The position numbers and the translations under genes are program-made. Below are positions 260 to 7,842 of a DNA stretch of 64,000 nt, piece after piece; position 1 is the first letter of the stretch, and every line of letters starts with the position of its first letter. The notes under the pieces were generated by a model. The model ran no database searches. It was not told where the DNA came from and worked only from the letters and a program-made list of their open reading frames with translations. The stretch comes from Candidatus Lustribacter sp. (GTDB lineage: Bacteria > Vulcanimicrobiota > Vulcanimicrobiia > Vulcanimicrobiales > Vulcanimicrobiaceae), in the NCBI GenBank assembly GCA_965277805.1, contig OZ255842.1:1920001-1984000 (forward strand). The letters run 5' to 3'.

Positions 260-880
260 CTAAGCTGAGCGGAGTCCCCGGTTGCGGTAGCCCATCGTTT
301 TCACGAACGCCTCGACGTACTCGGGCTCGAACTGCGTGCCGCTGCAGTTCATCAGTTCGGCCAGCGCCTGCGCCGGCGTGCGTACGCGTGAGTACGGACG
401 AGACACGGTCATGGCGTGGAAAGCGGCGGCGACGGCGATGATCCGCGATTCGTAAGGGATCTCGCTGCCGAGCAGGCCGTCGGGATAGCCGCGGCCGTCG
501 ACGCGCTCGTGATGCGAGCGGATGATCGCGCGGTACTTTTCCAGCTGCGGGAAGCCGGCGACAATCGTGGCGCCGAGATCCGGATGACGGCGCATCTGCT
601 GCCATTCCGACTCATCGAGCGAGCCGGGCTTCTCGAGCACGTGGAGCGAGATTGTCGTCTTCCCGATGTCGTGCAAGCGGGCGGCCGTCACGATGCGGTT
701 GATGCTGATCTCCTCGAGCTCGAGGGTCGTCGCGAGGCGGCGAGCGAGCAGGCCAACAGCATCGAGATGTGAAGCCGTGATCGGGTCGCGCACGCGCACC
801 ATCTGTACAAGTCCGTCGACGATCGCTTGGTCACCGTCGGCCAGAGACGACTGTAGCCAAAGTTCCGTAGCTTTATCCAC
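260..880 (-). CDS. HD-GYP domain protein (stand-alone, one metal ligand substituted)
   Basis: LHDIGK, RRHPDLG, HHERVDGRGYPDGL and IIAVAAAFHAMT. Start moved to GTG 880 because the upstream part of the track ORF overlaps the next gene. Confidence 0.85.
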   Translation of the reverse strand: MDKATELWLQSSLADGDQAIVDGLVQMVRVRDPITASHLDAVGLLARRLATTLELEEISINRIVTAARLHDIGKTTISLHVLEKPGSLDESEWQQMRRHPDLGATIVAGFPQLEKYRAIIRSHHERVDGRGYPDGLLGSEIPYESRIIAVAAAFHAMTVSRPYSRVRTPAQALAELMNCSGTQFEPEYVEAFVKTMGYRNRGLRSA

Positions 881-891
881 GTGTATGTGTT

Positions 892-1803
892 CTAGGCGGT
901 TTGTGCGATACGGCCGCGGTAGCCGAGCATTGCAGTGAATGCGGTGACGAGTTCGGGGTCGAACTGCGTGCCGCTGCCGGCGACGATCTGCTCCATCGCT
1001 TCGTTGGTCGTACGCGTCGTGCGATAGGGGCGGGCAAGCGTCATCGTGTGGAAGGCATCGCACATGGCGACGATCCGGCTCTCGAGCGGGATCTCTTCGT
1101 GCGCGGTTCCGGCGGGATAGCCGCGGCCATCGAACCATTCGCGGGTGGCCCGAACCAGGGGGGCGATTTCGGCCAGCGCCGGCATCGCTTCGAGCGTCGC
1201 GGCGCCGATCGCCGGATAGCTCTGCACTTCTTCGCATTCGGCGGCGGTGAGCGGCATCGGCTTATTCATGATCGAGCGCGAGATGCGCATCTTGCCGAGG
1301 TCGTGCAGCCGAGCGGTGAGGGTGACGCGGGAGACCGTTGCGCTCTCGAGGCCCATGTTAACGGCCAAGCGAGTGGCAAGTTCAGCGGTGATTTCGCAGT
1401 GGTCGGCGAGTTCAGGATCGTGCAGCCGGAGGGCGGCGACGAGGCCATCGGCCTGCGCAGCGGTGGTTGCATCGACGGTGTTCTTCGCGGAAGCCATGGC
1501 ACCCGAGGTGCGCAGATAATCGAGCGCTTCCTGGCGGAGCTTGTTAGCGAAGCGGACGCGATCAGCGAACCCTTCGCCTGGTTGCGTCATCTCGTGGATG
1601 ACGGTGTCGAGCGTACCTAAGATTTCTTCACCGCTTGGCATTCCACGTTCGAAGTCGATCCAGGCGCGAACGCGACGAGGATTGTTCATCCGTTGAGCTT
1701 CGGCCACGATCTTCACGCATGAATCGATCGTGTGGGCAGCCCACGGGAGCGAACGGTACAACGACTGGGGTAGCGATTCGAGAACGTCGCGCGAGACGGT
1801 CAT
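892..1803 (-). CDS. HD-GYP domain protein with uncharacterised N-terminal region (degenerate)
   Basis: LHDLGK, TREWFDGRGYPAG, MCDAFHTMT; ATG at 1803 preceded by GGAAGAGGA. Confidence 0.85.
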   Translation of the reverse strand: MTVSRDVLESLPQSLYRSLPWAAHTIDSCVKIVAEAQRMNNPRRVRAWIDFERGMPSGEEILGTLDTVIHEMTQPGEGFADRVRFANKLRQEALDYLRTSGAMASAKNTVDATTAAQADGLVAALRLHDPELADHCEITAELATRLAVNMGLESATVSRVTLTARLHDLGKMRISRSIMNKPMPLTAAECEEVQSYPAIGAATLEAMPALAEIAPLVRATREWFDGRGYPAGTAHEEIPLESRIVAMCDAFHTMTLARPYRTTRTTNEAMEQIVAGSGTQFDPELVTAFTAMLGYRGRIAQTA

Positions 1804-1849
1804 CTCATCCTCTTCCATAGAAGCAGAAAAAGCGGTGTGAAGCATTGTC

Positions 1850-1933
1850 TTACAACGGGGGAAGAATTGTCGTCTGAATCGTGACGAACGCGACGAGCGC
1901 AAACGCCAGAGCTTGGGCGAGCAGAAGTTTCAC
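1850..1933 (-). CDS. Small 27-aa signal-peptide-like propeptide MKLLLAQALAFALVAFVTIQTTILPPL
   Basis: Hand translation, below the ORF-track size cut-off: GTG start with GAGG 7 nt upstream, MK followed by a hydrophobic core, polar/Pro-rich tail, TAA stop; first gene of the HD-GYP operon. Confidence 0.65.
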   Translation of the reverse strand: MKLLLAQALAFALVAFVTIQTTILPPL

Positions 1934-1967
1934 AGGGGAACCTCACAAGAGTAGAGTGGTCCCCCAG

Positions 1968-2014
1968 ATCGTAAGCCTATCTAGACCGGAATCATCTCCC
2001 AAGATATGGGGAGA
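1968..2014 (-). promoter_or_regulatory. Putative promoter: -10 TACGAT (1973-1968) and 20-bp imperfect palindrome TCTCCCAAGATATGGGGAGA (1995-2014)
   Basis: Palindrome centre lies about 43 nt upstream of the inferred start site, the lux-box/class II activator position. Confidence 0.5.
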
Positions 2015-2027
2015 AAGTGACAAGCCG

Positions 2028-4556
2028 CTATTCGAGCCAGCCCATGTCCTGAGCATAGGCAACGGCCGCAGCGCGCCCAGAGCAGCCAATCTTCGAACAC
2101 GCCGACTTCAAATGGCTGAGCACAGTGTGGCTTGAGCGCCCTAGGCGGTCAGCCACGTCCGCGGTGGTCCCCCCGCTTCGAAGCTCGCGCAAAACTTCGA
2201 GCTCGGTCCTAGTTAACTGCGTAATCGTAGCCGGCGCCAAGATCCGTCTTAAGAAGCGGGCGTGGCCATCGAGCTGAAGCGCGATTAGAGGCTCGGTCAA
2301 CTGACTTAACTGGCGGACTGTCGTCGTTTGCCTCGACGTCGAGCAAATTGTGACGATCACTGTAAGAAGGCTCGCGTCGCGAGGCGTAACAGCTGAAAAG
2401 TCCGGAGTCGGGGCACGACGAGCAGCACGACCGCGACCCAGTAGCCACTGGCCAAGAGAATTATAAACTTGCGCGTATGCCAAGAGCCGACGGCTCTCAA
2501 AATCACTATCTGCGGGCATCAGTATCGGCCGACCAACCAAGGCAGTGGCCTCGTCACGCCTCGACGTAGCTAAAATCAATCCCAAAAGAGCGTCCCTAAA
2601 GACTCGTTCGGACGGTGACAGCGCGCTATTATCTAACGCAGATAACATGCTCACGGCTAATGGCTCGTTGCCGCGACCGGCTGCCCTTATTGCCTTGACA
2701 TAGTGGAGCCACATTAGATTTCTTGCACTACGCTCAGCACCCAGCTCGACGAGACGCCTTTCACTAGCCTCGTAGAGATCGTCGTCCCCTTGATCAGCGG
2801 CAATTACAAGCTGACATTCCAAGCCATGTATCTGCATCGCTCGGTCGCCCGCGGCGATGGCTGATCGTGTGCAAGCTTCTGCATATCTTCTCGAGAGCAG
2901 AGTATCCGGATAAACGGCGGAGGCCACGCCTTGTAAAACGCTATAACCACGAGCAGCGATACTCTCGAGCCCAAGTGAGTGGGCAAGCTGAACGCTCTCC
3001 GTTGCGTATCCTTCCGCGACCATTGGTTCACCAAGGCACCAGTGAGCGTAAGCGAGGCGATGGCTAACGATAGCCCGCATCTCCACTGACCCTGCGTCCA
3101 GCGCGTTAGAGCAAAACCCAATTGCATCTCGCGAAACCGTCACTTCTCCAGCCAATGCACCGGCTACGGCCAAGGCAGCAGCAGCGTTTAATCGGACTGT
3201 TCCCTCAATGTGCTCATCAACCATCAGGGCACGCAACGAGGGTACGGCCTCCTTTGGACGCATAACGCTTACGGACAGATTAGCTGACTGGAGGGTAAGA
3301 GCACCGCGCATTTGGTGCCCAACGTCTCCTTCCAGCGCCCTTTCGAGCTCTCGTTTCGCAACCGCATACGCGCCATCGATCGAAAGCGCGAAGCCGCGCA
3401 AACCTGTTATGATCGGATGATCGCGATAGGCGCGCGGAAAGCGATTGATCGCAGCCAATATGTCCGAGCGTCTACCATTCTCAATGCGATCGATACCGTG
3501 CCGCGTCAGTAGCGCGATTGCTTGGTCCCATGCCTCGGCGCGGATATGCATCGCAATCGCCCCGTCTACATCACCAAACTTCTCGAGGGCACGCGCGAGT
3601 CGCGCAACTAATATCGAATGACGTTCGCTATCTGCTTGACTACGCTCTAAAATGAATTCACGGAACAGCTCATGTACCTTGAAATTACCATTGCCTATTC
3701 GCGACAATAGAGGTAAGCGTAGTTGCAGGCGTTCCAGCGCCAAGCGTGACTCCGGAAAACCGGCCGCACCAAGTATACGGGGCTTCAAATCACTTAGATG
3801 AGCGGCCGCCTCGCAAAGCCCTTGCTCATCGGCTGATAAATGAGACCAGACCTGCTCTTCTATAAATTCAAAAAGGACGCGTCTCGTTCGTATGCGCAAC
3901 GAGGGAAGCGCTTGTGTCCGTTCCCAAGTTCCCAACGATAACCGCACTGCCAAAGGCCAGCCGCCTACGTCGGTTACGAGATCCTGAATCGAACTACTAT
4001 CGATTTGAACGTTTAACGTTAACGCTACCGCGGCGCCTTCACTAACCTCAAATGCGAGGTCCTCTGCGGTAATTGGCAGCGCCATATAGTCTCGCGCCAA
4101 CCAAGTACCAACCGGCAATTCCGGCGTTTCACGCGAAACGATGACCCAACGGACAGTGGGAACGGTTGCTTCAATCACGTGCCGAACAAAGCGGAGACTG
4201 TTGGCGTCTGCCGAGATTCGCTGGAAGTCCTCGAATACGATCGGGGTTTCTACCGATCGCAACCTCTGCGAACACCACTCTGCTAAATGGACTAAATTCT
4301 CTTCCGTTTGAGGTCTAGCGAGGTGTGCACTCAGTGCACGCATTGAACGGGGAGAGACCTTTTCAATCAGAAGTCGCGCCACGGTTTCTGGGGTGACGCC
4401 ATCTTCGGGGAGATAAATCCAATGGGCTTCGGCACCGAATGCATCAGTGGCAGCCTCGCTCTTCCCGAAACCAGCAGGTGCGATGAGCATCGCAAGTCCG
4501 CGATTCGCCGAGTCTTGTAGGGCTTCGGTTATCCGTTCGCGCGGATAAATAGACAT
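2028..4556 (-). CDS. MalT-like STAND ATPase / helical-repeat / LuxR-HTH transcriptional regulator
   Basis: APAGFGKS Walker A, IVFEDFQ Walker B, GGWP, VHELFREF, C-terminal LTRTELEVL...VLSHLKSACSKIG. Confidence 0.85.
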   Translation of the reverse strand: MSIYPRERITEALQDSANRGLAMLIAPAGFGKSEAATDAFGAEAHWIYLPEDGVTPETVARLLIEKVSPRSMRALSAHLARPQTEENLVHLAEWCSQRLRSVETPIVFEDFQRISADANSLRFVRHVIEATVPTVRWVIVSRETPELPVGTWLARDYMALPITAEDLAFEVSEGAAVALTLNVQIDSSSIQDLVTDVGGWPLAVRLSLGTWERTQALPSLRIRTRRVLFEFIEEQVWSHLSADEQGLCEAAAHLSDLKPRILGAAGFPESRLALERLQLRLPLLSRIGNGNFKVHELFREFILERSQADSERHSILVARLARALEKFGDVDGAIAMHIRAEAWDQAIALLTRHGIDRIENGRRSDILAAINRFPRAYRDHPIITGLRGFALSIDGAYAVAKRELERALEGDVGHQMRGALTLQSANLSVSVMRPKEAVPSLRALMVDEHIEGTVRLNAAAALAVAGALAGEVTVSRDAIGFCSNALDAGSVEMRAIVSHRLAYAHWCLGEPMVAEGYATESVQLAHSLGLESIAARGYSVLQGVASAVYPDTLLSRRYAEACTRSAIAAGDRAMQIHGLECQLVIAADQGDDDLYEASERRLVELGAERSARNLMWLHYVKAIRAAGRGNEPLAVSMLSALDNSALSPSERVFRDALLGLILATSRRDEATALVGRPILMPADSDFESRRLLAYAQVYNSLGQWLLGRGRAARRAPTPDFSAVTPRDASLLTVIVTICSTSRQTTTVRQLSQLTEPLIALQLDGHARFLRRILAPATITQLTRTELEVLRELRSGGTTADVADRLGRSSHTVLSHLKSACSKIGCSGRAAAVAYAQDMGWLE

Positions 4557-4710
4557 GCTAAGTCAGCCCTATGCGCTCAAATTGAAGGGAGGCAATGGAA
4601 CTCCACGGGGAAGATCGCGTCGGCCACCAACCCGAGCAATCCTTGAGTGTGTCGGGCAACACTAGGCTAGGGGCTTAGGCACTCGACCGCTCGCGACCCT
4701 TTACGATATC

Positions 4711-7434
4711 GTGACGAATCTAGTCCCAGCGAATTACAAGGTTCCAGCATCAACCGAGAGCCAAAGACCGGACTTGCAGCCAAGCCCCTGCATGGATTCA
4801 GGCATGAAAAAGAGTCCCCAAAGGAAGGTCCGCCCTCTTAATCAGCGCGCTGCAATAAATCGCGAGTTGACGCGACAGAGCTCTGCGCCCGCGAGGCTGC
4901 GGATTATTGAAAGATTACTCTCCGCCACGAGCTATCCGATTACAGCAGTTATCGCGCCGGCGGGTTTCGGAAAAACGACGGCCATCAACGATCTGCTGGA
5001 GCAACAGCGCTCCGCATCCGTTATAATTTCGACCCCGAACGATACAAATATCGAGAAGTTTATGCAGTCGCTCGCACAATCATTTGCTCCTCACTTCCCG
5101 GAGTTGGCAACACCACCCAGCGAAGTTAATGCCGGCGCTCAAAGTGGTGGGAGCAATATCGACCTTTATGTTGCGTGGGCAAACAGGCATTTGCGCGATA
5201 TAAACTTCACGATTGCAGTCGATGATCTGCAGCGTGCGGATCATGACCCGTCAATAGCGGCCTTCCTAACGCGACTTGCTGATATCTCAAAAGACCACCT
5301 AAAGTGGATCTTCAGTTCACGGACGCACGGTCATTTACCGTTGACCCGATGGCAAGCCTATGGTTATGCGGATGCGGCTATCACCGCAGATGATCTCCGC
5401 ATGACTTCAGATGAAGCCAACCAGTTTGCAAGAGCCGTCGGCAGCCCGGCAACGTCAGAGCAAATCGACGAATGGGTCGCTATAACGCAGGGCTTTCCGG
5501 TTCCACTTACCTATGCGATCAGAGTTTCCGCAAGCCGTGGAACCGCCGACGGCATTATGGATGGAACGCGATCAATCACTTTTCGCTTCCTTGCCGAACA
5601 TGTCTGGGAATCACTATCTTCCGAAGAACGTCGCCTCCTTGAACTTGCATCATTTTTACCGCCCTTGCACACTCATCGCTATGAAGAAGCCGGCGTTGAC
5701 AACGCGACCGGGATAATTTCTCGCTTATGCAATGACATTGCATTCCTTTCATTGACCCCCGCCGGAATCTTTTCGATGCACGATTTATTCCGGGACTTCC
5801 TACGTCAACAGATATTAGCAGCCGGATTAACACGACAAAATGAACGATTGAACTGCGCAGCAAATCTATTGCTAAATTCAGGCCGCTTCGACGACGGCTT
5901 TTCTCTTTTGATTGAGTTTCTAAGTCCGGTCGAACTTGCTCATACCATTGAACGATTTCCCTCAGCAAATTGCAATATAGCTGTTACGCGCGACATTGTC
6001 GAATCTACCGGGGAGCTAAAAGTAGAAAGCCTCGGATTAACGCTACTAGTATTGCAGGCTGAGCACTGGTCGTGGATGGGAGACGCGAATAGGGCACAAC
6101 GATACGGTCAGGAAATCCTACGGCGGCCCGACGCATCATCTGGGCAGATGATGAGCGCAATCAGCTCGATTTTTAGAACGACGAATTATCAAGGACAGGA
6201 GGTTCACAAGTATTGGCTCTCAGTATTTCCTTTGATATTTGATCGGCTGGGTGACGCAGATCGGATTTGGGCTCGCGCATACCAAGTTATGTTACTTTCG
6301 CGGTATCCTGAGACCCAGGGAGTAGCCCGCTCATTCGCTAGCGAGGTACTTAGCCAAACCAGCAAGTTATCCGCAAGAGCGCACATTGATGTTCTTATCG
6401 TACTCGGCGTAGCTTTTTACTATCTTAACGATAATGTTGACGGCATGGACGTTTTACGTGAAGCCGCTGACTTGGCTGAATTATTCAGCGATGCGAGAGA
6501 ACGGGCTCGCGCACTTAACAACTACGGGGTGATGTTAGATCGGGTTCGCGATGCGAGGGTGGAGTCGATCTTCGCGCCATTGCGGGACCTCGTAGAGCGC
6601 ACGGGGTCTTGGCGCTTTTCGCACACAAGCCACTGGCTCCCGGCTCAATATTATGCAGTTCAGGGTGATTTAGGTGCGACGAATGAGGCTCTGACGCTCC
6701 AGTCCGCGGTGATCGCGAGCGAAGAGTCCGAAAAGGAGCGTTTGTCTTCAATTCGCCGACATTGCTTAGACCTATGCAATCTGATAAAGGAAGATTATCG
6801 CGCAGTCATTTCCGACTTTGCCTCTGCAACTCCCTATAAACTGCTAGAGTTAGAATACGACCGCCTCGCGTGCGCAGCATTAGCATACGGTTTTTTGTCC
6901 AACACGATTGACTGTGAAAAACTACTTGCAAAATTAAAGCAGCTTCGTCATTCAAGTCCGGTCTTTGCTCTGTACAGCGGTCGCGAGACTATCCTGATTG
7001 AAATTACTGCGTTGTGTATGGTTGGCCGCTGGACCCAGGCAAGACAGTTGAATGAACAATTTAGGGGGCAGATCGCGTCTATAGCACCGCTCGAATACGC
7101 GCTCGAGCTCTTATGTCTTGGGCCACCCTTCTTGAATGTTTCAGCTGCACTCGAGCCTTGTCTCGGGAAACCATATATGGGACTTCCCGCTTTAACCATC
7201 AAAAGGCTGATTGATCGTCAGCTGGCGGATCATTTAAAGCAACACCTGACGGCCGCTGAAATGGACGTGCTTCGCATGGTTACAGCGGGCAAATCAAACA
7301 AAGAGATCGCGAATGCACGCAAGCGTAGTGAGGAGACGGTTAAGCGACAAGTAGCCTCACTATATAGAAAACTAGGCGTCGAAAATCGTACGAGCGCGGT
7401 CGCCGTTGCGCGGGAACGAGGCATCCTAGACTAG
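4711..7434 (+). CDS. MalT-like STAND ATPase / helical-repeat / LuxR-HTH transcriptional regulator (start uncertain, maybe ATG 4792 or 4804)
   Basis: APAGFGKTT, IAVDDLQ, QGFP, SMHDLFRDF, C-terminal LTAAEMDVL...GKSNKEIA...TVKRQVASLYRKLGV. Confidence 0.85.
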   Translation: MTNLVPANYKVPASTESQRPDLQPSPCMDSGMKKSPQRKVRPLNQRAAINRELTRQSSAPARLRIIERLLSATSYPITAVIAPAGFGKTTAINDLLEQQRSASVIISTPNDTNIEKFMQSLAQSFAPHFPELATPPSEVNAGAQSGGSNIDLYVAWANRHLRDINFTIAVDDLQRADHDPSIAAFLTRLADISKDHLKWIFSSRTHGHLPLTRWQAYGYADAAITADDLRMTSDEANQFARAVGSPATSEQIDEWVAITQGFPVPLTYAIRVSASRGTADGIMDGTRSITFRFLAEHVWESLSSEERRLLELASFLPPLHTHRYEEAGVDNATGIISRLCNDIAFLSLTPAGIFSMHDLFRDFLRQQILAAGLTRQNERLNCAANLLLNSGRFDDGFSLLIEFLSPVELAHTIERFPSANCNIAVTRDIVESTGELKVESLGLTLLVLQAEHWSWMGDANRAQRYGQEILRRPDASSGQMMSAISSIFRTTNYQGQEVHKYWLSVFPLIFDRLGDADRIWARAYQVMLLSRYPETQGVARSFASEVLSQTSKLSARAHIDVLIVLGVAFYYLNDNVDGMDVLREAADLAELFSDARERARALNNYGVMLDRVRDARVESIFAPLRDLVERTGSWRFSHTSHWLPAQYYAVQGDLGATNEALTLQSAVIASEESEKERLSSIRRHCLDLCNLIKEDYRAVISDFASATPYKLLELEYDRLACAALAYGFLSNTIDCEKLLAKLKQLRHSSPVFALYSGRETILIEITALCMVGRWTQARQLNEQFRGQIASIAPLEYALELLCLGPPFLNVSAALEPCLGKPYMGLPALTIKRLIDRQLADHLKQHLTAAEMDVLRMVTAGKSNKEIANARKRSEETVKRQVASLYRKLGVENRTSAVAVARERGILD

Positions 7435-7842
7435 CTACGGTAGCGTAGCACTTTGCCAGATGGTGCCGTCGGCGAATGAGACCTGAACGACCCGAACTTC
7501 GGGAGTTCCGTTAACGTCAAACGGGTTCACTGGGAAGCCGTGGCGGATCAGCACGCCTTTCGCGAACCTCCCGACGTCGTTGAATCGATCGACGAAGCCA
7601 TTCGCGTCCACGGCAAAGACGACGTCCGTTGCATCGACGTTCGACTGGTTTTCGAACGTTATTTCAACCGATGCCGGTAGAATGTTCATGTCGTGGATGG
7701 CGTCCTGATAGAAGCCTCCGATAAACTGCGCATTTACGACTTGAATCGAGCCGGCTTCTGCAGCGCTAGCTGAGGGCAGCCCCACCGTAGAGGCGGCGAG
7801 GATCGCCGCCCCGAGGAAAGCCGCCGAAAGTTTGCTGTTCAT
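7435..7842 (-). CDS. Secreted hypothetical protein, probably beta-rich
   Basis: Sec signal ending ASA-A; TACAAT 6 nt before ATG; stop codon abuts that of the convergent regulator. Confidence 0.75.
   Translation of the reverse strand: MNSKLSAAFLGAAILAASTVGLPSASAAEAGSIQVVNAQFIGGFYQDAIHDMNILPASVEITFENQSNVDATDVVFAVDANGFVDRFNDVGRFAKGVLIRHGFPVNPFDVNGTPEVRVVQVSFADGTIWQSATLP

Follow-up and report, generated by a model that had tools for sequence, protein, structure and literature searches.

The minus strand of the window, by which we mean the whole 64,000-nt stretch analysed here (G000:C1:1920001-1984000) from the genome of Candidatus Lustribacter (phylum Vulcanimicrobiota/WPS-2), an uncultured bacterium of soil and peat, carries a small open reading frame (sORF) of 27 codons that we regard with high confidence as a real gene. 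Reading along that strand, the gene reg1 (4556-2028), encoding a regulator, is followed after a spacer of 94 nt by the sORF and then by two genes for HD-GYP proteins, HD1 and HD2 (880-260). It is well supported that the sORF heads an operon of three genes (sORF / HD-GYP / HD-GYP) that is specific to Ca. Lustribacter. Moreover, the spacing and start signals of the two reading frames make it most likely that HD1 is translated by re-initiation of ribosomes that have finished the sORF (translational coupling). More tentatively, and with somewhat less than an even chance that the reading is right in full, promoter included, we propose that the sORF is coupled to HD1 and that its product is a single-pass inner-membrane micro-protein. 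The host genome is available as a single contig of 5,533,281 bases that is 95% complete and has a G+C content of 64.3%.

The original prediction, made from the letters of the window, had pointed to an unannotated frame for a peptide of 27 amino acids (aa), preceded by a well-spaced GAGG and showing a Lys at position 2, a hydrophobic core and a short Pro-Pro tail. Direct reading of the minus strand bore this out: a GTG-initiated, TAA-terminated frame is present as described, GAGG occupies 1944-1941, separated by 7 nt from the GTG, and the product indeed combines Lys2 with a hydrophobic core and a C-terminal ILPPL tail. With 84 nt the sORF falls below the usual minimum length of gene callers, which fits its absence from the list of open reading frames (ORFs). 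Taken over the best stretch of 19 residues, Kyte-Doolittle hydropathy reaches 2.12 in this peptide and 1.65-2.38 in all ten long versions of it, where 1.6 is the threshold for a membrane span; the one short version, from genome G005, does not qualify. Asp and Glu are absent from every version, Lys and Arg number 0-2 in each, and a hydrophobic run of 17-20 residues (read by eye) extends nearly to the C-terminus of the 25-30-aa precursors. The peptide had no family match in Pfam, and a search of the ESM Atlas with a 30-aa orthologue returned an unnamed cluster as its top match (score 0.76). A genome-wide scan for SD-led (Shine-Dalgarno-led) hydrophobic ORFs ending in PP[LFIMV]G? yielded two, namely the sORF and one unrelated ORF, indicating that the sORF is single-copy. 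The unrelated one (G000:C1:5172131, plus strand, 25 aa, GTG start) has a dissimilar context and is probably a chance occurrence.

Loci for comparison were gathered from genomes and from one metagenome scan with the N-terminal domain of HD1 (11 loci), giving 13 distinct orthologous sequences: the window, six same-genus genomes, five further metagenome contigs and locus L119. Left out of this count were L022, L023 and L109 (duplicates of L102, L105 and L108), L110 (an error-ridden copy of L105), L111 and G001 (in which the region is lacking), and L106, which is ended by a contig edge so that its ...LIPPL-stop tail alone is visible. Of seven same-genus genomes, five matched the 251 nt around the sORF (70-85% identity, E<=4e-16), nothing exceeded the noise in 33 genomes from other genera, and HD1 orthologues of full length are confined to the genus as well. 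The unpublished genomes G015 and G036 were included in these searches and carry none of the claims made here.

An intact frame was found at the same place in 11 of the 13 distinct loci, with 25-30 codons in ten of them and 15 codons in G005. All 11 carry an SD core at most 16 nt from the start codon, which is GTG in seven, ATG in three and TTG in one. The outcome that the original prediction had named against itself, a frame unconserved among relatives and without a translation signal, is thus not what these loci show. Pro-Pro stands one or two residues before the stop in every intact version, and the invariant alignment columns are M1, P25 and P26. Since peptide identity to the window version is merely 22-54%, the peptide, as read from these alignments, evolves fast yet retains its character. 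The G005 orthologue is the most deviant: it has its own GGAGAG and ATG, shows no hydrophobic stretch, ends in ...FLPPM-stop and sits beside an intact regulator gene, and its tail (T-V-S-x-T-F-L-P-P-M) can be laid against that of the window (T-I-Q-T-T-I-L-P-P-L). Across the 11 aligned orthologues, the C-terminal tail and translation appear as the universal features of the sORF.

Both exceptions to the intact frame concern the run of C residues in the proline codons. In L021 (genome G003) one extra base where this run begins shifts the frame, and in L119 the frame is shifted within a run of seven C; taking one C away there restores a ...PPPPFF-stop tail, followed by GAGG and ATG. Both stem from long-read-style 'MFD' metagenome-assembled genomes (MAGs), and L110, which is otherwise identical to L105, shows that such sequence errors occur in these assemblies, so that a homopolymer error is a plausible cause of the L119 frameshift. 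The apparent sORF-HD1 fusion that L119 presents was considered as a 'Rosetta stone' for a partnership between the two products and discarded on account of this C7 homopolymer. The module reg1-palindrome-sORF-HD1-HD2 in L119 (5099-6154; reg1 62% identity) was found in a MAG labelled 'uncultured proteobacterium', a bin label that looks doubtful for a locus of the Lustribacter type.

The coding character of the sORF was assessed over five phylogenetically independent pairs. Mismatches at codon positions 1, 2 and 3 amounted to 0.46, 0.25 and 0.63, and this periodicity held both in the part encoding the hydrophobic core (0.48/0.26/0.67) and in that encoding the tail (0.44/0.24/0.58). For the dN/dS check that had been proposed along with the original prediction, the ratio of non-synonymous to synonymous differences per site (pN/pS) was lowest in the sORF frame (0.52, versus 0.80 and 1.61 in the shifted frames), a rough estimate because it draws on 11 short, fast-evolving sequences whose synonymous sites are near saturation (pS 0.69). 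In the closest pair, the window genome and G003, the 22 codons preceding the frameshift showed 12.7 synonymous differences over 17.3 sites and 4.3 non-synonymous differences over 45.7 sites. Among orthologues, the Pro codons end in C, G or A, showing that it is the proline that is conserved and not a run of C. Together with the retained hydrophobicity, codon periodicity in both core and tail argues that the peptide product is under selection, beyond the mere act of its translation.

The case for coupling comes from the junction between the sORF and HD1. Followed upstream, the HD1 frame meets no stop before an ATG at 1845, 4 nt past the stop codon of the sORF, and this start is without an SD of its own. 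In all 11 orthologues the distance from sORF stop to HD1-frame start codon is 4-10 nt, and an SD core precedes HD1 in 1 of 11 loci versus 11 of 11 for the sORF. It is this combination of a short gap, an HD1 start without SD and an SD-led sORF that suggests translational coupling. In the databases, the upstream HD1 start is used in 50 of 90 HD1 clusters (312-317 aa), and 26 clusters begin at an internal Met (303-304 aa), the others being partial or of 308 aa. An alignment of 43 proteins revealed a conserved N-terminal extension (M-x-x-T-A-F ... E-D-E), and a G005-like group has no internal Met at all, from which it follows that the upstream start is real, at least in that group. With 26 of 90 clusters starting at the internal Met, the HD1 start would be corrected for about a third of the database entries.

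Upstream of the sORF, a 20-bp palindrome lies within the spacer that follows reg1. Its arms pair exactly over 6 bases, or over 8 if one mismatch is allowed, and its core pattern TCTCCC-N8-GGGAGA has one occurrence in the 5,533,281-base genome (regular-expression search). The palindrome is near-invariant in all 12 aligned loci, and the next ca. 20 nt vary freely. In 11 of 11 loci its centre lies 31.5 bp upstream of the first base of the probable -10 hexamer; no -35 element was recognisable by eye in the alignment of the 12 loci. Transcription would then start near 1961, ca. 7 nt after the -10 hexamer, which places the palindrome centre at about -43. The lux-type boxes of class II promoters sit at -42.5. 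These features suggest an activator-dependent promoter served by a LuxR-type helix-turn-helix (HTH), most simply that of reg1, whose binding to the palindrome would follow from its adjacency and from the uniqueness of the palindrome in the genome. The features of the locus are collected in the table below.

Table. Features of the sORF locus (positions in the window; minus strand unless marked otherwise)
Feature	Position	Strand	Basis
sORF, 27 codons, GTG at 1933-1931, TAA at 1852-1850	1850..1933	-	ORF listing and direct reading of the sequence
SD core GAGG (TGAGGT in orthologues)	1941..1944	-	7-nt spacer (1940-1934) before GTG
HD1, 317 aa, helical N-domain and HD-GYP domain	892..1845	-	Pfam HD_5, 1.2e-31
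HD2, stand-alone HD-GYP protein, 206 aa, third cistron	260..880	-	Pfam HD_5, 5.4e-32; syntenic in G005
reg1, 842-aa MalT-like STAND/LAL regulator with C-terminal GerE (LuxR-type) HTH	2028..4556	-	Pfam and PDB matches, orthologues
reg2, 907-aa divergent LAL regulator	4711..7434	+	Pfam; outside the conserved core
20-bp palindrome TCTCCCCATATCTTGGGAGA, probable operator for a LuxR-type HTH	1995..2014	-	pattern search and alignment
Probable -10 hexamer TACGAT (TAnn[A/C]T in orthologues)	1968..1973	-	alignment, fixed spacing
TGTCAC motif flanking the palindrome, directly after the reg1 stop	2017..2022	-	11 of 12 loci; TGTCAT in L025
GA(C/T)CACT motif between -10 hexamer and SD, just 3' of the inferred transcription start	1951-1960	-	conserved in the alignment

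According to its domains, reg1 is a MalT/LAL-type regulator that combines a STAND domain with a GerE HTH: residues 5-309 match the nucleotide-binding domain of MalT (8bob_C, E 4.8e-9) and residues 780-835 match the GerE HTH (5.9e-10), and its length falls in the range of about 800-950 aa that marks such regulators. Its orthologues measure 841-842 aa at 72-82% identity, and the gene is also intact in G005 (842 aa, 58% identity). G005 in fact holds reg1, palindrome, sORF, HD1 and HD2 altogether and has no reg2 at the locus, so that reg2 appears dispensable for the module and outside its conserved core. In locus L115 (PLTN01000001.1) we observed a second reg1 copy (84% identity), ended by the contig edge at residue 786, in the same MAG as L025 and L113; it reflects either a mixture of strains in the bin or a duplication.

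In G003, the closest relative, part of the locus is broken. Its reg1 changes frame at least 4 times and carries 11 single-base indels, and its sORF is broken too, as described above, while the 4.2 kb next to them, in which HD1 and HD2 lie, is 95-100% identical to the window genome without any indel inside the genes. DNA identity between both genomes thus amounts to 75-85% across reg1 and sORF versus 95-100% across the HD-GYP genes. This could be a pseudogenised module, a recombined divergent allele, or both. We make no claim of 'pherotype-like' diversifying selection: reg1 ranks below HD1 in conservation in every pair examined and is still 72-82% identical among its orthologues.

On the enzyme side, HD1 had PDB matches to solved phosphodiesterases acting on cyclic GMP-AMP (cGAMP) and cyclic di-GMP (c-di-GMP). 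The model of its N-domain reached a predicted local distance difference test (pLDDT) score of 38-70, which is too weak for a fold search. Downstream of HD2, at 2-223 on the minus strand, we observed the beginning of a gene that resembles the N-terminus of an alpha/beta-hydrolase (esterase-type) and runs off the window. Genes farther from the locus belong to unrelated metabolism, and the genome yielded no DUF5317. The G+C content of window positions 1800-7800 is 46-58% versus the genome mean of 64.3%, marking a low-G+C island; the island contains both LAL regulator genes and stops at the sORF, with the adjoining HD-GYP genes at 62-66% G+C.

At the RNA level, a search of Rfam at E<=1 found no family, its sole match being a sub-threshold snoRNA on the wrong strand. 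No terminator-like site was detected between 1600 and 2300, the 196-nt leader folded no better than its shuffles (z -1.26), and single folds of the 12 orthologues revealed no common structure from the sORF end to the HD1 start. Consensus folding of the 5' untranslated region (5' UTR) with RNAalifold gave 3 pairs (-0.73 kcal/mol) without covariation or compensatory pairs, and no conserved hairpin at the GA(C/T)CACT motif. A ribosome-arrest or attenuator leader was considered and set aside, as terminator-like sites and a shared alternative RNA structure are both missing from these analyses. Regarding expression, in 3 of 4 metatranscriptome runs contigs of relatives (80-95% alike) cover HD1, with unlike loose ends that enter the diverged sORF region; one of these ends decodes to ...VPPL-stop. 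Such libraries may contain DNA, and the contigs give a weak hint of sORF-HD1 co-transcription; uncovered stretches and the points at which contigs stop were disregarded.

Put together, the reading we prefer would run as follows. The LAL/LuxR-type regulator reg1 would most likely bind the palindrome and thereby activate the promoter that lacks a -35. Ribosomes would load at the SD of the sORF, the only Shine-Dalgarno in the leader, and those ending the sORF would re-initiate at the SD-less start of HD1. The peptide would span the inner membrane, with the Lys2-bearing N-terminus inside and the tail outside, and would be made in step with the phosphodiesterase. In favour of this reading also stand the MalT-like make-up of reg1 with its GerE HTH and the breakage of both reg1 and sORF in G003. 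Insertion of the peptide into the membrane, via a hydrophobic helix of ca. 18-20 residues, is what the hydropathy profile suggests, and small hydrophobic genes of this sort most often turn out to encode small membrane proteins. Of the two alternatives that the original prediction had listed beside its pheromone idea, the small membrane protein fits better, and the type I toxin fits poorly with an operonic, single-copy gene whose stop is only 4 nt away from the start that follows.

Several observations weigh against this reading. An in-frame ATG (1803 in the window) with a strong GAGGA, 39-45 nt into HD1, occurs in most orthologues, so that HD1 might initiate independently, which lessens the need for coupling; two HD1 isoforms, starting at 1845 and 1803, are possible. 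The G005 orthologue lacks the hydrophobic helix, which shows that a membrane helix is not needed in every case. Furthermore, HD1, HD2, reg1 and reg2 show no membrane segment when their sequences are read by eye, so that no membrane partner is visible at the locus. The sample behind the rough dN/dS estimate is small, comprising the same 11 short and fast-evolving sequences with pS 0.69. Finally, at the RNA level there are assembled contigs of relatives to go by, from which neither one continuous transcript nor its end or level can be established.

The layout of the peptide had originally been likened to that of Phr/SHP-type pheromone precursors, and this likeness holds in 10 of the 11 intact orthologues. 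One could accordingly imagine a secreted and processed signal, for which the precursor would enter the membrane and its C-terminal 5-8 residues (...[LIF]xPP[LFIMW]) would be released, re-imported and bound by the sensor domain of reg1. Activation of the palindrome promoter by reg1 would then yield further peptide along with both HD-GYP phosphodiesterases, with the resulting autoinduction lowering the levels of cyclic dinucleotides. Apart from its layout as a short hydrophobic precursor, such a signal would be in keeping with the tail being the part conserved in all 11 orthologues, leaderless G005 included, and with the joint decay of reg1 and sORF in G003. The order of regulator gene, peptide gene behind a probable operator, and target genes also parallels that of SHP/Rgg as outlined in PMC7564271. 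We nevertheless consider this account unlikely, as secretion and sensing find no backing. Specifically, reg1 belongs to the STAND/LAL proteins, has its HTH at the C-terminus and is not an RRNPP receptor, and the host is diderm, as it encodes Omp85 and LpxC and as 10.1101/534180 describes for WPS-2. The exporter family EcsB/PptB (PF05975) had no match in the 95% complete genome, where control searches did match in Bacillus and Lactococcus, and the neighbouring genes include no exporter or processing gene either. The alignment, read by eye, shows no consistent signal-peptidase site (small residues at -3/-1), leaving the peptide unlike a Phr-type Sec precursor. M50 proteases and 17 SBP_bac_5 matches, the families looked at for an Eep/RseP-type protease and an Opp-type importer, do occur in the genome, and because these families also match in 14 of 14 and 11 of 14 control genomes, respectively, they do not discriminate. 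A 4-nt coupling to an enzyme gene is not known as a trait of pheromone genes. Complex prediction for the peptide (11-row alignment) and residues 300-775 of reg1, its sensor region (7-row alignment), gave scores of 0.20 and 0.13 where the mark is 0.32, values that are uninformative given that the partner is shorter than those of the calibration set. That an LPPL-type C-terminal fragment is the ligand of a MalT-like STAND/LAL regulator, forming an autoinduction circuit in a diderm, uncultured phylum, is improbable.

The stop-start gap of 4-10 nt, an HD1 start that is SD-less in 10 of 11 loci and the invariant Pro-Pro could also be explained by a cis-acting leader cistron, for which translation alone matters: Pro-Pro near the stop would tie termination and re-initiation to elongation factor P (EF-P) or the supply of prolyl-tRNA, and a paused ribosome would cover the HD1 start, whose ATG lies by our own arithmetic at most 13 nt from the second Pro codon. 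That G005 keeps SD, start and PP-tail without the hydrophobic part agrees with this. Against it, the codon periodicity and hydrophobicity over the N-terminal two-thirds indicate selection on the product, no conserved RNA structure joins the sORF to the HD1 start, and Pro-Pro with Leu, Phe, Ile or Met after it is not known to be one of the strong EF-P-dependent stall motifs; this too we consider a minor prospect. Still less probable is an intracellular feedback micro-protein that would modulate reg1 or HD1 by binding to the former or to the helical N-domain of the latter. MalT itself is bound by MalY, MalK and Aes, and the tight coupling with HD1, the joint decay with reg1 in G003 and the unassigned function of the HD1 N-domain would suit such a partner. 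A peptide this hydrophobic is unlikely to be soluble, though, and across 174-555 aa no fused sORF-HD1 form turned up among the 90 HD1 clusters, none of which exceeded 317 aa; the sole fused frame, that of L119, lies on the C7 homopolymer. A type I toxin or a functionless chance ORF is very improbable. Many type I toxins are short hydrophobic ORFs like this one, and one sigma-70-like match was found on the opposite strand at 1929-1957, but that site faces away from the sORF, and its hexamers coincide with the conserved start codon region and the GACCACTCT motif. Type I toxins typically have a free-standing mRNA that an antisense RNA overlaps, and they often occur in several copies. Conservation, synteny, single copy and the position as first cistron of an operon likewise speak against a toxin, and a chance ORF is excluded by the coding signature.

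These data add an unannotated micro-protein gene family to the Vulcanimicrobiota/WPS-2, a phylum almost without experimental genetics, and provide an example of a gene that was overlooked purely for its shortness. They further outline what would be a complete regulatory unit, in which a LAL regulator and a unique operator are combined with a coupled mini-gene and two HD-GYP enzymes in tandem. If the peptide were a ligand of reg1 after all, this would constitute a new kind of peptide sensing, in which both the receptor class and the host range are not known for ribosomal peptide signals so far, and the autoinduction would tie cell density directly to cyclic-dinucleotide turnover. A limited word search of the open-access literature found no mini-gene coupled to an HD-GYP gene and no peptide sensing by LAL regulators.

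Among known systems, precursors of the SHP, PrgQ and ComS type have ca. 15-30 codons; their N-terminus is basic, their body hydrophobic and their C-terminal end conserved. The sORF locus shares this short precursor layout, as well as the gene order, with SHP/Rgg, PrgQ/PrgX and ComS/ComR. As PMC7564271 describes them, SHP/Rgg systems place the peptide gene next to the gene for the transcription factor and before the controlled genes, have a Gram-positive range, and use cytoplasmic receptors of the RRNPP fold, in which an N-terminal HTH (or none) is combined with a C-terminal TPR domain. The present locus differs from RRNPP systems in its STAND ATPase with a C-terminal GerE HTH, its diderm host, the absence of PptB/EcsB from the search results and the coupling of the peptide gene to an enzyme gene.

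Coupled upstream cistrons and leader ORFs form another point of comparison, since termination-reinitiation coupling is an established arrangement and leader ORFs with proline codons are known, for instance mgtP of Salmonella. Like these, the sORF has its own SD, an SD-less downstream start a few nt past its stop, and proline codons at the critical site. It differs from leader ORFs such as mgtP in that its leader is without alternative hairpin or terminator and in that the peptide itself appears to be selected. With regard to its promoter, the locus resembles MalT/LAL systems and lux-box class II promoters in the domains of reg1, in the 20-bp palindrome ca. 43 bp before the inferred start and in a -35 that is weak or absent; compared with lux-box class II promoters, the proposed binding of reg1 to the palindrome draws on adjacency and uniqueness.

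Finally, MgrB, KdpF, AcrZ and CydX are proteins of fewer than 50 aa with one helix that were missed by annotation, are encoded in operons with partner proteins and conserve their character over their sequence. The sORF peptide matches this description, being shorter than 50 aa, annotation-missed, operon-encoded and poorly conserved in sequence, with one hydrophobic helix. It departs from these proteins in that its operon encodes no membrane protein, G005 is without the helix, and no relationship to a named family is apparent. Small membrane-associated proteins have also been linked to the control of c-di-GMP in Clostridioides, according to PMC13724677. We file the sORF among the small hydrophobic first-cistron proteins.

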